Source: an uncultured delta proteobacterium (GTDB lineage Bacteria; Myxococcota; Myxococcia; Myxococcales; Anaeromyxobacteraceae). Taken from it: 64,000 bases of DNA. The stretch is taken from positions 192,001-256,000 of the forward strand of contig CAWFDF010000011.1 in assembly GCA_963814585.1 (NCBI GenBank), written 5' to 3'. The translations under genes were made by a program, and so were the position numbers. Below are positions 52,908 through 58,220 of this stretch, piece after piece (the first letter of the stretch is position 1; the number at the start of each line of letters is the position of its first letter). Below the pieces are notes generated by a model. It was not told the DNA's origin and did no database searches. It worked only from the letters and a program-made list of their open reading frames with translations.

Positions 52908-53294
52908 ATGCTCTTCGCCGCCCACCTCGTCGCCGCGCTCGTCACGTTCTCCGCACCCGTTGCCGGGGCGCTGCCTCCCCCCGGCCTCGTCGACGGCGCC
53001 ACCGCCCAGCAGCTCCAGGCGGGCGGCGTCACCGTCCTCGACGTGCGCTCGGCGCAGGAGTTCGAGAGCGGGCACGTGCCGGGCGCCCTCAACATCCCCC
53101 ACGACCAGGTGGCGGCCCGGAGCGCCGAGCTGGGCGCCAAGGACCGGCCGGTCCTGCTCTACTGCAGGAGCGGTCGCCGCAGCGGCCTGGCCGCCTCCGA
53201 CCTGGCCAGGCTGGGCTTCACCGCCCTCTACGACTTCAAGTCCATCAGCGCGTGGCCGGGCCCGGTGGACAAGGGTCCGGCGAAGGGGAAGTAG
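52908..53294 (+). CDS. Rhodanese-like protein
   Basis: AGGAGG RBS; LDVRSAQEFESGHVPGA, LYCRSGRRS. Confidence 0.9.
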   Translation: MLFAAHLVAALVTFSAPVAGALPPPGLVDGATAQQLQAGGVTVLDVRSAQEFESGHVPGALNIPHDQVAARSAELGAKDRPVLLYCRSGRRSGLAASDLARLGFTALYDFKSISAWPGPVDKGPAKGK

Positions 53295-53991
53295 AGCTCG
53301 GGGCGGGAGGGAGCGCCGCCCTCGCCTCGGCGAGCGCCCGCCGCAGCGCGCGTTTGGCCAGCAGGCCCACCACCGCCGTGAGCACGGCCAGCCCCGCCAG
53401 GAGCCCCCACGAGTCGAGGCGGAGGCCTTGCACCGCCTGGCGCGGGTCCGGCAGGAGCGAGCCCAGCCAGGCGTAGAGGATGGTCCCGGGCAGCATCCCG
53501 ACGAAGGAGCCGGCCGCGAAGTCGCGCAGGCGCAGCGGCGTGACCCCGACCACGTAGTTCAGCACCGGGAAGGGGACCACCGGGGTGGCGCGCAGCAGGG
53601 CCACCACCTGGAAGCCGCTGCGCCGGATGGCCTCGGCGATGATCGGCCACTCGCCCACCCGGGCGAGCCGGCGGGCCACCACGCCGCGCAGCAGCGTCCG
53701 CCCCAGCAGGAACGGGAGGCAGGAGGCGACGCAGGTGGCCGGTGCCGCCACCAGCACGCCCACCACCGGGCCGAAGGCGTGGCCGGCGCCCACGGTGATG
53801 GGGCCGGCCGGGAGCATGAGCAGGCCCGCCACCAGGTAGACCAGGGCGTAGGCGACCCGCCCGGCAGGCCCGCCCTCCCGCGCCGCGAGGAGGGCCTCGA
53901 GGATCCAGTCGGGCCGTCGCAGCACCGAGAAGGCCAGCGCCGCCAGCGCCAGGCCGACCAGCAGGAGCCGGACCAGGCCCCCGCGGACCAC
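53245..53991 (-). CDS. TVP38/DedA (VTT domain) membrane protein
   Basis: LLRATPVVPFPVLNYVVG, GSFVGMLPGT; GTG at 53991 overlaps the upstream TAG. Confidence 0.88.
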   Translation of the reverse strand: MVRGGLVRLLLVGLALAALAFSVLRRPDWILEALLAAREGGPAGRVAYALVYLVAGLLMLPAGPITVGAGHAFGPVVGVLVAAPATCVASCLPFLLGRTLLRGVVARRLARVGEWPIIAEAIRRSGFQVVALLRATPVVPFPVLNYVVGVTPLRLRDFAAGSFVGMLPGTILYAWLGSLLPDPRQAVQGLRLDSWGLLAGLAVLTAVVGLLAKRALRRALAEARAALPPAPSSTSPSPDPCPPGPATR

Positions 53992-54307
53992 TACCAGGTC
54001 CCGAAGCGGCGGGGGGGGCCGGAGACGCTCAGCCCGCGCGTCGGATCCGTCTTGCGGAGCCCCTCGGACACGGCCCAGCGAAAGAAGGCCCGGGACGCCG
54101 AGAGGCGCAGCCGCCGCGTCCCCAGCCCCGCGGCCGCCTCGACCCAGGCGCGGAGCTGGGCCCTGGTGACGCTGCGGACCCACGCGGCGTCGGGCTGGCG
54201 CCGCGCCCGCCACGCCAGCTGCAGCACGGCCCGAGCGTAGAGGATGGCGGTCCGCGGCGCGCTGCCGGCCGCATCAGGTGGTCACGGAAGCGGACGGCGA
54301 TGGTCAC
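53991..54307 (-). pseudogene. Stand-alone integrase SAM-like (core-binding) domain gene, one frameshift near 54272
   Basis: VTIAVRFRDHL/AAGSAPRTAILYARAVLQLA...VTRAQLRAWV...RRLRLSASRAFFRWAVSEGLRKTDPT resembles the XerC/D-type N-terminal domain. Confidence 0.65.
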
Positions 54308-54514
54308 GCTTTGCCACCTTGGGTCGAAACCTGCACGCGCGCGTGCTTGGGACAAACGCGCTTGCTCGGGCCTGATTCCGTAGAGATCGCGAGGGGCCCC
54401 AGGGGTCACCTCGTGCCCTCCTCGAGCTCGCGGGGCGGCCGCTGGGCTGCGAGCGCGGCGAGCTGGGCCACCTGGCCCCGGAAGGCCTCGGGGCGCGTCC
54501 AGGCGGCGAGGATG

Positions 54515-55148
54515 CGAGGAGCACCTCGAGGAGCGTGCTCTTGCCGTTGGCGCCGGTTCCGTAGAGCAGGAAGAGGGCGTGCTCGCCCACGCCGCCGGTG
54601 AGTGAGTAGCCGACGGCGCGCTGGATGAAGTCGCGGAGGCGCTGTTGCGCCCAGTGACGCGCTCGAGGAAGGTCGACCAGGCCGGGCAGCTGGCCGCGGC
54701 GTCAGTACTTCACCGGAGCCAGCCGGGTGATGAGGTCATCGGGCCGGTGAGGCCGGAGCTCGCCGGTGCAGAAGGTCGATGTGTGCCGTTCTCGACGTTG
54801 AGCGCCCACGGGTCGGCGTCGAGGTCCTCAGGGGTCAGGGCCAGCGTGGGGTTGGTGCTCGCAATCCGCAGCATCGCCTCGAGGGCGCGGGCGCTCTCGC
54901 TGGCGATGGCGTGACGCGCCTGGGCCTTCCGGTCGGCCTGGCTGTCCTCCTCGGCCGCCGCCGCGAGCCGCGCGCGCGTTGGCCTCGAGGGCGTAGGTCA
55001 TCACCCGGCGCTTCTCGTCGGCGCGCCATCGGGCGCTGTCCCAGAGGTGCCAGCGGTTCCAGCCGTGGACGTACCGAACGACCCCCCCGAACGTGTTCAC
55101 GAACAGCTCGGCATTGCCCGCCTCTGAGAGCTGGAACGGCTGCCCCAT
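54515..55148 (-). pseudogene. D5/P4-family primase-helicase fragment (frameshifted, truncated after Walker A)
   Basis: LSEAGNAELFV...RYVHGWNRWHLWDSARWRAD; LDADPWALNVENG; DDLITR; IQRAVGYSLTG; FLLYGTGANGKSTLLEVL. Confidence 0.85.
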
Positions 55149-55529
55149 CACCTGTACCTCCTCGGTCGGCCCGCCAGCGCCGGGTCGGATGCCACGCCGG
55201 CGTGCGGCTGGCCGCCGAGCACCACCAGGTCGAGGATGCCGTTGCGGTCCACGCGCACCAGCTGGCCGGTGGGCCCGACGTAGGTGCGCCCGCGGCTTCA
55301 GCAGCGCCGGCAACCAGGGGCAGGCCCGGCGCCAGCCAGGGGGGAGCGGCACCAGCTCGGGGTCGAAGAGGTCGGGCGTGGTCACTGGAGTTGCTCCGCG
55401 GCCAGGGGCTCCACGACGTCCACCGGGATCGCCCCGTCGGTCCCGAGCTCGACGAAGGCCTCGTGCCAGAGCACGACGGCGACGGACGGGCCGGCCTTCT
55501 TCGGCCGCTCGCGGCGGATGACCACCAGC

Positions 55530-56677
55530 GGCGACGCCGAGCTTCTCCGACCAGTAGGAGCGGGCGGTCCGCCGGAGGTCGTGCGGCGTCCAGTGCGGCA
55601 TGACCAGCTGCTTCGCCTTGAAGAGCTCCCGGACGTGGCGCGACAGGGCCGTGTCGCTGAGCCGGCCGGTGGCGCTGGAGTGGGGCGGTCTTGAAGACGA
55701 GGTGCGATCCGGCTGTCGTGCCGGGCGCTTCCGGTGCCTGCAGCTTCTCGAAGGCGGTCCACCGCCGCGCGGCGAGAGCGGCACCACCTCGTCGCCGATG
55801 GAGGCGTGCATGGTGGCCTTCCGGTCGGCCTCCGGGATGGTCCAGAGCCCGGCCTCGAGGTCCACGTGCTCCCAGCGGGCGCGGAGCAGCTCGCCGGTCC
55901 GCTTGCCGGTCAGGAGCAGCAGGAGCAGCGCCTGGCGGCCCACCTTGGCGTCCTCGCGCGCACGGGCCGGCGAGGGCGGCGAGGAGCTGCTGCAGCTCCT
56001 CCGGCGAGAGCACGCGCTGGCGGGGCGGGCGCTCGACGGCGCCCAGCGGCGCGGGGCCTGAGGCCCTGGAAGGGCGAGGCGTCGAGGACGCCCAAGCTGC
56101 AGGGCGAAGTTGAACATCTGGCCGAGCAGCCGGTGCGTCCTCGATGCCTGGGTCGCGTGGCCGTCGGCGGCGATGTCCTCGATGACGCGCGTGCCACGCC
56201 TGCTTCGGGCGACGTTCCGCACCCTGAGGTTCTTGAAGCCCGTGCGGCCGCTGGAGGACGAACCGCTTGAGCTCCGCTTCTCGGCTGCGCGGGGGTGCTT
56301 GCGGTGGCCCTGCGAGCGACGCCTGGAACTTGGTCACCAGGCGTCGACGGTCATCTCGTCGGGAGGCCGGCGACCTGGTCGAGGCCCGACAGGCCGCTGC
56401 GCGCCCGGCTCCGCAGCTGCTCGAGCCGCTCGCGGGCCGCCGCCAGGCCGAGGTCGGGATAGCGACCCAGGACCGTCAGGCTCTGCTTCCCGCCGGCCTG
56501 GTCGGTAGAGCACCCAGGTGACGGTGCCGCTCTTGCCGAGGCGGGCGCGCAGCCCGGGGCGGTCGCTGTCGCCCCACTCCTCGCGCTCGCTCGCGGCGCT
56601 TGCCGAGCTGTTCGCGCAGCCACGACTTCTGTGAAGCGACGCACGCGGGGGCGTCGTGTAGGCTTGGGCTCGACCAT
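55530..56677 (-). pseudogene. Tyrosine integrase with N-terminal arm-binding domain, multiply frameshifted, C-terminus missing
   Basis: DSDRPGLRARL, LGRYPDLGLAAARE, RQRVLSPEEL, LLLTGKRTGELLRARWEHVDL, WTPHDLRRTARS; no downstream His/Tyr box. Confidence 0.88.
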
Positions 56678-56763
56678 CGTGCCTCCAGCAAGGCCCGCTG
56701 GTTCTGGGGCTCCCGGCTGGCAGGCCGGGAGCCCCTTCTTCTGGCCTCGAGGGTTACGAGGTC

Positions 56764-56864
56764 CCGGGATGAAACCGCGCCTCCTGGGATGAAACCTGGG
56801 ATGAAACGTTCACGCGACCAGGAGCGTACAAGGCCGGTCTGACGCGAACAATCCTTCATCCCGG
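56764..56864. repeat. Putative integrase arm-type binding sites
   Basis: GGGATGAAAC at 56766, 56786 and 56798, plus inverted TTCATCCCGG at 56855-56864, between the integrase start and the att repeat. Confidence 0.7.
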
Positions 56865-56945
56865 AAGCCCTATCGCACGCCTGCGAGTATCTGCTGACCT
56901 GGATCGCAGGCAGGATCGGGCGGATGCGAAGTCCCGAAAACAGGG

Positions 56946-58220
56946 TTACCACGTCCCGAACCGCCTGCGCGCCTCGGCGGTGAGCGCGTCACGCTGCGAC
57001 GGGTGCGCGATGGCGATGAGCGCCGCGGCCCGCTGCCGGAGGTTCTTGCCCCACAGGTCGGCGATGCCGTGCTCGGTCACCACGTAGTGGACGTGGGCGC
57101 GGGTGGAGACCACGCCGGCGCCGGGCTTCAGGTAGGAGACGATGCGGGACTCGCCCTTCGGGGTGGTGGAGGGGAGCGCGATGATCGGCTTCCCGCCCTC
57201 CGAGAGCGCCGCGCCGCGCATGAAGTCCATCTGGCCGCCGACCCCGGAGTAGAGGCGGTCGCCGAGGGAGTCGGCGCAGACCTGCCCGGTCAGGTCGACC
57301 TCGAGGGCGCTGTTGATGGCGATGACCTTGCGGTTGCGGCGGATCACGGCGGTGTCGTTGACGTAGGCGATGTCGAGCATCGACACCTGCGGGTTGTCGT
57401 CGATGAAGTCGTAGAGGGCGCGGCCGCCCAGCGCGAAGCCGGCCACCACCTTCCCCGGGTAGACGGTCTTGGCCTCGCCGGTGATGACGCCGCGCTCGAC
57501 CAGGTCGACCACGCCGTCGGTGAGCATCTCGGTGTGCATGCCCAGGCGGCGGTGATCGCGCAGGCCGAGCAGGGTGGCGTTGGGGATGGCGCCGATGCCG
57601 AGCTGCAGGCAGGCGCCGTCCTCGACCAGCTCGGCGCAGTGGAGCCCGATGGCCTTCTCCGCCTCGGTGAGCGGGTGGTGGGTCTCCTCGGGGATGGGGT
57701 CGTCGACCAGGACCAGGAAGTCGATGTCGTCCTGGTGCAGGATGCCGTCGCCGTGGGTGCGCGGCATGTTGGGGTTGACCTGGGCGATGACGGTGCGGGC
57801 CACCTCCACCGCGGCGCGGGTCACGTCGACCGAGACGCCCAGCGAGCAGAAGCCGTGCCGGTCGGGGGGCGAGACCTGGATGAGGGCCACGTCGAGCGGC
57901 AGCACGCCGGCGCGGAAGAGCTGCGGCACCTCGGAGAGGAAGACCGGAAGGTAGTCGGCGCGCCCCTCGTTGACGGCCTGCCGGACGTTGGCGCCGACGA
58001 AGAGGGCGTTGACGCGGAAGCTCCTGGCCATCTCCGGGGCGGCGTAGGGCGCGGCCCCCTCGGTGTGCAGGTGGACCACCTCGACCACCCGCAGCTCGTC
58101 GGACCGGGCCGTCATGGCGGCGATCAGCCGCTGCGGCGCGGCGGCGACGCTGTGGACGAAGACGCGGTCCCCGGACCGGATGACGGCGACGGCTTCCTGG
58201 GCGGTGACGGTGCGGGACAT
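56946..58220 (-). CDS. Acetyl-CoA hydrolase/transferase (4-hydroxybutyrate CoA-transferase-like)
   Basis: LQLGIGAIP, HTEM, INSALEVDLTGQVCADS, SGVGGQMDFMRGA, VVTEHG. Confidence 0.93.
   Translation of the reverse strand: MSRTVTAQEAVAVIRSGDRVFVHSVAAAPQRLIAAMTARSDELRVVEVVHLHTEGAAPYAAPEMARSFRVNALFVGANVRQAVNEGRADYLPVFLSEVPQLFRAGVLPLDVALIQVSPPDRHGFCSLGVSVDVTRAAVEVARTVIAQVNPNMPRTHGDGILHQDDIDFLVLVDDPIPEETHHPLTEAEKAIGLHCAELVEDGACLQLGIGAIPNATLLGLRDHRRLGMHTEMLTDGVVDLVERGVITGEAKTVYPGKVVAGFALGGRALYDFIDDNPQVSMLDIAYVNDTAVIRRNRKVIAINSALEVDLTGQVCADSLGDRLYSGVGGQMDFMRGAALSEGGKPIIALPSTTPKGESRIVSYLKPGAGVVSTRAHVHYVVTEHGIADLWGKNLRQRAAALIAIAHPSQRDALTAEARRRFGTW

Follow-up and report, generated by a model that had tools for sequence, protein, structure and literature searches.

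A 64,000-nt stretch of contig C11 of genome G000, an uncultured member of the Anaeromyxobacteraceae, was analysed (the window; all coordinates given here are positions within it). It contains a small mobile element inserted into the last codons of an acetyl-coenzyme A (CoA) hydrolase/transferase gene. The element is a satellite-like remnant in which both the integrase and the primase are truncated. It has delivered synonymous last seven codons to its target, the enzyme is unchanged, and the displaced original gene end now stands in front of dedA. We consider it probable that a satellite-like element of the Anaeromyxobacteraceae entered the end of this gene by a net exchange upstream of the 8-bp core shared by the two junctions, and that internal segments and the right arm were deleted later. 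The target gene (56946..58220, minus strand; PF02550 and PF13336) is intact, encodes a 424-aa protein resembling 4-hydroxybutyrate CoA-transferases and has no frameshifts relative to the homolog in genome G002. Its best matches in the PDB are 4-hydroxybutyrate CoA-transferases (E 7e-153), but the top NCBIfam score is under the cut-off.

Both junctions are read on the minus strand. The left attachment site, attL (56946..56966), is AGG CGG TTC GGG ACG TGG TAA. It constitutes the recoded 3' end supplied by the element and is absent from the empty-site contigs, in which 54011 is joined to 56967. The right attachment site, attR (53991..54011), is CGC CGC TTC GGG ACC TGG TAG, the original 3' end of the host gene, and is identical in the empty-site contigs. 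The two 21-mers are separated by 2,955 bp and match at 16 of 21 positions (5 differences), with TTCGGGAC in common. Each encodes RRFGTW followed by a stop, as the initial annotation had described. The repeat is not due to chance, because these are the only two places in the 4.34-Mb genome where this peptide and stop are encoded. The TAG of attR is followed directly by TG and overlaps the GTG of a gene for a DedA/VTT-family membrane protein (53245..53991, minus strand; PF09335, E 1.6e-21), an overlap that had also been noticed at the outset. The GTG start is supported by G001, whose homologous GTG is free of any overlap with an upstream gene.

An empty site in which TTC GGG ACC TGG TAG TG joins the CoA-transferase gene directly to dedA had been predicted, and exactly this arrangement is found in G002 and in contigs of three sequencing runs, X1, X2 and X6. 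The gene end was read in 29 other genomes (the best 30 CoA-transferase loci), 12 of the same genus, one of these with merely 53 nt of flank, and 17 others. The dedA gene begins no more than about 12 nt after the CoA-transferase gene in 4 of the 12 and in none of the 17. Contigs were compared from 4 of 19 listed sequencing runs, leaving out 13 with a share below 0.2, two more sharing none of the words, and X3 and X4 (share 0.34). Those of X1, X2 and X6 (three of the four runs and two of three studies) join 54011 to 56967 and skip 2,955 bases. On the dedA side, the X2 contig has no mismatches in 412 positions (53600-54011) and the X1 contig has one in 399. X1 and X2 belong to one study, and X1 or X2 may be the source of the window's own DNA; X6 belongs to a second study and is ~95-96% identical. 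The insertion into the last codons of the CoA-transferase gene is confirmed. The empty site and the repeated use of the same position in other genomes bear out the original proposal of a site-specific insertion into a metabolic gene, although a protein-coding gene as the bacterial attachment site (attB) is nothing unusual.

Related tyrosine-integrase elements have used this site repeatedly and in several genera. In G020, which belongs to another genus, a 4,428-bp element lies at the same gene end between perfect 27-bp repeats (27/27), and G097 has the matching empty site. The G020 element contains just a 5' remnant of the same integrase (the first ~55 codons) and cargo. Its locus (L031:15256-19709) comprises both att sites, arm repeats, a gene for a 422-aa Fic protein and three open reading frames (ORFs) without assigned function; such an element could be mobilisable in trans. 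On the metagenome contig L104, an intact 442-aa integrase gene directly follows the end of the CoA-transferase gene. About 130 nt past the CoA-transferase stop in G036 (L032:2160-2290) resemble the left end of the element with no integrase behind them, and are likely a scar. A DNA search of 92 genomes of the family gave matches at E <1e-10 just in G000, G107 and G020, so that occupancy of the site is low.

The doubled-core pattern matched G000 alone among the 92 family genomes, but it was too strict. Candidate second copies in G071 and G030 turned out to be contig overlaps or strain variants and not attL/attR pairs, and none of 20 stretches examined gave an integrase match. A scan of genome contigs returned G107 only. 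When viral contigs were scanned with the G107 integrase and with the integrase and SAM alignments, no relative turned up, and the phage integrases among the 20 matches listed are all at or below about 27% identity.

G107 is a genome of the same family, and its integrase is 68% identical to that of L104. The gene split there encodes an FHA/sigma-54 activator and is interrupted after about codon 29 (L044:2093-2147, L137:1491-1597). Both junctions were found and share a 20-bp block. The G107 element provides an in-frame substitute start for the 3' part of the gene, and a stop soon after its 5' part. Two further members of the clade, L106:2400-3820 and L076 (G100), are at other sites; the G100 copy has no 5' part and abuts an oppositely oriented gene. 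The expectation that homologous integrases would be found downstream of the CoA-transferase gene is thus borne out by G020 and L104, but not the supposition that they keep to this site, since those of G107 and L106 use others.

The integrase of the window element (55533..56677, minus strand; PF13356 and PF00589) is a tyrosine integrase with an N-terminal arm-binding domain. Its gene starts 270 nt past the CoA-transferase stop. The protein is 75% identical to the intact L104 homolog, which has PF13356, PF22022 and PF00589, but its C-terminal 62 residues are missing. The match ends at residue 380 of 442, ahead of the LGH and RTY motifs, which we take to be catalytic motifs of this integrase. In a tree built from all 32 integrase rows, the window integrase groups with those of L105 and L104 (98/95), and these three lie within a clade of six (100/100). 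Frameshifts make the branch of the window integrase long. Many of the more distant rows adjoin tRNA or tmRNA genes.

The remaining interior lies on the same strand. The cut integrase is fused, near 55530, to the 3' end of an unassigned ORF (55382..55522) that belongs to no PHROG family; the alignment to L104 breaks here. A small frameshifted ORF (55148..55385), which has no family match and bears a weak resemblance to its positional counterpart in L105, precedes the 5' part of a D5/P4-family primase-helicase gene (54515..55148; D5_N, E 2.9e-8). The primase fragment ends just past the Walker A motif and covers positions 55-96 of the 304-position TIGR01613 profile (E 1.1e-11). L105, a close relative, has the order integrase, ORF, HTH_17/AlpA, small ORF and D5/P4 primase, whereas the AlpA gene is missing from the window copy. 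Comparison of the two gene orders therefore indicates that at least two internal segments have been lost from the window copy. These large deletions could be a real loss or an assembly artefact. The copy in the window is presumably no longer able to excise itself.

Four arm-type repeats, TTCATCCC(A/G)G, are present at 56764..56864. One is inverted (56855-56864) and three are direct, starting from 56805, 56793 and 56773. The motif has 29 exact copies in the genome, and the repeats are kept at matching spacing in L104, G020 and G107. They are putative arm sites of the integrase. The left flank of attR has no arm repeat within 2,500 nt, nor one with two mismatches within 430 nt, whereas the sister elements have arm repeats 80 nt (G020) and 79 and 91 nt (G107) to the left of attR.

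The alleles at the two junctions bear on the side of the core at which the net exchange took place. The empty allele in the same-species contigs is the full right-hand 21-mer including CGC CGC. The attR copy is therefore original to the host, and the attL copy was brought by the element. Consequently, the net exchange occurred at or upstream of 56967, i.e. upstream of the 8-bp core. AGG CGG is found in none of the 12 other genomes of the genus, CGC CGC in 6 of them, and the AGG CGG end is common to the window attL and L104. The restored protein ends in RRFGTW like its relatives, and the last 21 nt of its gene are absent from the empty contigs. The identity block of G020 starts 19 nt before the Trp/stop 7-mer, at an Ala codon, and runs to the stop, an extent that would be as for a replacement sequence. 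The inverted repeat GAACCT/AGGTTC is located at its left end.

The course of events was probably as follows. An element with an arm-type tyrosine integrase, small ORFs and a D5/P4 primase recombined into the last CoA-transferase codons. Its own attachment site, attP, supplied the synonymous last seven codons, and the end of the host gene moved in front of dedA together with the dedA start. The C-terminus of the integrase, the excisionase region, the C-terminus of the primase and the right arm would have been lost later. In the last deletion, a SAM-like ORF with a tail of Arg codons may have been fused to the Arg codons of the host gene end, which created the second RRFGTW-stop.

Several observations weigh against this reconstruction. 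Four genomes of genus g10 have AGG CGG as their native allele, and finding it in L104 is therefore no independent proof that it travels with the element. An upstream exchange requires a 6-bp overlap or one tolerated mismatch. The arm distances are 79 + 142 nt in G107, and 80 + 143-144 nt from the Trp/stop 7-mer in G020 and L104; this shared spacing aligns the right end of the G107 block with the 7-mer, and the upstream codons do not fit it. The SAM-like ORF and its stand-alone homolog P0004 (105 aa) are of similar length, so that little of it need be lost in a deletion. Finally, neither element junction is bridged by any contig among the rows listed from the four runs, and the occupied copy therefore rests on the assembly alone.

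The arm spacing points to a different cut site. The integrase might cut at the 7-mer that follows TTCGGGA and encodes Thr/Ser-Trp-stop, with TTCGGGA as a core-binding site, and the upstream markers might have been shifted by branch migration, heteroduplex repair or an earlier event. The spacing agrees with that of G107 on both sides to 1-2 nt, and the two identity blocks, 20 bp in G107 and 27 bp in G020, have their ends at a near-equal offset. Mismatched att sites can resolve into varied attL/attR combinations, as described in the available excerpt of PMC7466150. With a cut at this position, however, attL would be expected to have the host allele and the left side of attR an element-type allele, and the window has the reverse. 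Nor does such a cut account for the 13-19 bp of identity on the non-restoring side, and the four occupied sites show no conservation of the bases to the right of the 7-mer. We regard a cut at the 7-mer as unlikely.

The initial annotation had placed the exchange inside TTCGGGAC, with a dual-coding attP, so that the host gene and an element gene would both keep RRFGTW-stop; such a design would be Mx8-like. The 8-bp identity invites this interpretation. The element gene in question is the SAM-like (integrase N-terminal) ORF of ~105 codons at 53991..54307 on the minus strand, identical to P0004 at 59 of 100 residues. It has a frameshift near 54272 and runs in frame into the host-derived RRFGTW-stop at near the length of P0004. 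Its homologs diverge right after a conserved GVSV motif, as if their ends were near a junction. But an exchange in the core needs AGG CGG in the host, and the three empty contigs lack it just as the 12 genomes of the genus do. Neither the marker alleles nor the arm spacing pick the 8-bp core as the cut site. The ORF stays in frame with its tail across a run of eight C in an error-rich stretch, no arm site is found beside attR, and none of the three close homologs P0004, P0035 and P0041 (105, 135 and 129 aa) ends in FGTW. Among 363 genomes of the order, only that of the window gave a match to the ORF, and the other 362, which include G020 and G107, gave none; G020 has no such ORF at its attR. 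The ORF was also not found in 400 genomes sampled from the phylum, nor among phages. An element gene kept intact by the integration is thus not borne out, and we consider an exchange within the core quite improbable.

The missing arm repeats at the window attR make a deletion fusion the simplest reading of the second RRFGTW-stop: two runs of CGC (Arg) codons were joined and the frame was kept automatically. The last residues of P0004 are GPRRRRV, and its alignment with the ORF reaches no further than the two Arg codons at 54011-54006. The ORF scores under the cut-off against Phage_int_SAM_1. Most of its 32 matches are longer XerC-like proteins aligned over the N-terminal domain, whereas P0004, P0035 and P0041, at 105-135 aa, make up a small family of integrase N-terminal domains that stand alone and differ in their C-termini. 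A likeness of the window and G107 attR flanks, AGCG..TCTCCG, was discarded, because the spacing differs and the window copy is explained by the coding of the ORF. There is perhaps a slight chance that the ORF is an att-overlapping gene for a stand-alone integrase core-binding domain, with a C-terminus set by the att junction and a role in modulating recombination, e.g. as a competitor or a directionality factor, in an integrase clade that switches between 3' (CoA-transferase) and 5' (FHA/sigma-54 activator) targets.

Frameshifts are abundant in the element. A codon-aware count gave 16 frameshifts and no stops in 375 codons of the window integrase (0, 0, 0 and 2 frameshifts in controls), and the substitutions by codon position are 68/48/128, with an excess at third positions. 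In a codon Viterbi analysis of 6 of the 18 contigs, events averaged 0.77 per 3 kb. The window had 6 events in the element versus 3 in the other 61 kb. Equally dense patches, mostly of insertions, occur in ordinary or single-copy genes of the assembly, whose identities were judged by eye. The extra base at 56625 is missing from the X1 and X2 contigs that carry a related integrase, and in X1 the one at 56590 is missing as well. The 1-2 nt indels are probably errors of a locally poor long-read consensus and not decay. The raw number of gaps in the DNA alignment (30) was rejected as a measure of error because it overstates it, the more distant G107 pair also having 22. Pseudogene calls in the G000 assembly should be distrusted. 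Insertion-type frameshift patches are located at C10:58000-59700, C3:125300-128500, C3:325100-329300 and C9:1-6000.

The least probable explanation is that the window copy is an assembly mosaic, into which one or a few noisy long reads of another strain or species were stitched, making the right junction and the internal deletions artefacts: the excess of frameshifts over the flanks, the nearly perfect match of the flanks to the empty-site contigs and the lack of a listed contig over an element junction would fit it, but both flanks are from the same species and meet exactly at a known attB, the error patches extend to ordinary single-copy genes, and G020 and L104 show use of the site independently.

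Replacement of a protein-gene end by attP is well known (icd, fis, dusA), and the CoA-transferase gene would be an addition to these targets. According to an excerpt of PMC10111431, attP normally carries a replacement that keeps the targeted protein gene functional, and icd, fis and hpt are among the targets; the part available of PMC13626634 describes synonymous differences between the e14 copies at E. coli icd/icdC; and streptococcal integrative and conjugative elements have 18 target genes according to an excerpt of PMC4701971. As far as these excerpts describe them, e14 (icd/icdC) and the phage-inducible chromosomal islands (PICIs; fis, hpt) resemble the window element in that the insertion is in a coding sequence, attP supplies a functional replacement, and the original end is displaced to attR with synonymous differences. 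Unlike them, the window element has a Myxococcota CoA-transferase gene as its target, the replacement is only ~21-27 bp, and the copy is defective. The dusA islands, which replace the 5' end of their target in the available part of PMC4482086, resemble the G107 sister element in the insertion into the 5' part of a gene and the in-frame substitute start. The window element, unlike these islands, is at a 3' end.

The gene order of L105 and the small size are like those of PICI, P4-like and PICMI satellites. Unlike in these, no psu/delta/sid, capsid-morphogenesis or terminase gene was seen, neither the window copy nor L105 being a complete element, and no helper phage is known. Where a P4-like satellite has a psu-delta-sid operon, alpA, epsilon and the alpha primase (excerpt of PMC10085698), the window element has a primase fragment only, within 2,955 bp; being internally deleted, this copy is no guide to its parent element. 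The five PICI components are an integrase, an AlpA-like protein, a primase, capsid morphogenesis and a small terminase. Two of these are present as fragments in the window and three in the partial contig L105; the same excerpt holds a PICI with three components alone to be ambiguous. A PICMI has int, alpA and primase at fis (PMC10803314, in excerpt), whereas the window element is not at fis and lacks alpA. The resemblance to Mx8 is that an ORF of the element ends at an att junction in a myxobacterium. In Mx8, as the excerpt of PMC4701971 describes, attP lies in the active integrase gene and a 112-residue C-terminus is swapped for 13 residues. The window ORF, unlike that, is a separate non-catalytic SAM-like ORF, and its fusion is probably a by-product of deletion. 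The window element is thus not shown to be of the P4, PICI, PICMI or Mx8 type.

Among the properties expected of an integrated island, the window element has an integrase beside a junction, an att identity block with an empty attB, a restored target and a site that is reused. It does not have a catalytically complete integrase and both arms, the C-terminus and the right-arm repeat being missing. The attP joint was not seen among the listed contig rows of the four runs. For myxobacteria, the excerpt available of PMC11610982 names no sites other than those of Mx8 and Mx9. A CoA-transferase attB was not found named in the literature listings and excerpts covered, and island tables may already include the site; one paper that connects a CoA-transferase with islands describes the enzyme as cargo and not as target.

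With this site, a conserved metabolic gene end joins the integration hotspots; few mobile elements have been described in the family. The replacement mechanism itself is textbook. The intact L104 integrase, with its mapped site, could be turned into an integration tool for Anaeromyxobacteraceae, and its use would not alter the target enzyme. Integrases that are 68% identical, recognize different protein genes and act with opposite geometry (3' end versus 5' part) represent a natural case for the study of target switching.

A second core-like copy, TTTCGGGA-N7-TCCGCC (56919..56939, minus strand), follows the first after ~22 nt. The motif scores 13/13 in G000 and 12/13 in G036 and L104, and none of the other 44 scored rows exceeds 8/13; the 49 rows include 2 that were too short and a few duplicates. 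In G020 this copy is displaced by one base. The segment 56919-56939 and the bases that follow resemble, by eye, the host sequence of the G107 target site on the strand of the element. The copy is possibly a relic of an older core. At 56690-56730, shortly before the integrase gene begins, there is a G+C-rich inverted repeat that is conserved in L104 and G107 and possibly regulatory.

The stretch C11:1000-13000 of G000 has 31-41% G+C, fragmented genes and many frameshifts, unlike the rest of the genome, and the start of the contig is possibly mis-joined foreign sequence. In G001 and G012, dedA lies kilobases from the CoA-transferase gene. Foreign-looking DNA is situated between the two genes in G001 (L033:230-5040), and in G012 (L034, G012:C25) it extends 1.7-6.9 kb past the CoA-transferase gene, before dedA, and is accompanied by a duplicated dedA fragment. 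The intervening DNA in both genomes has no att duplicate and no similarity to the element. The interval between the CoA-transferase gene and dedA seems to be prone to insertion.

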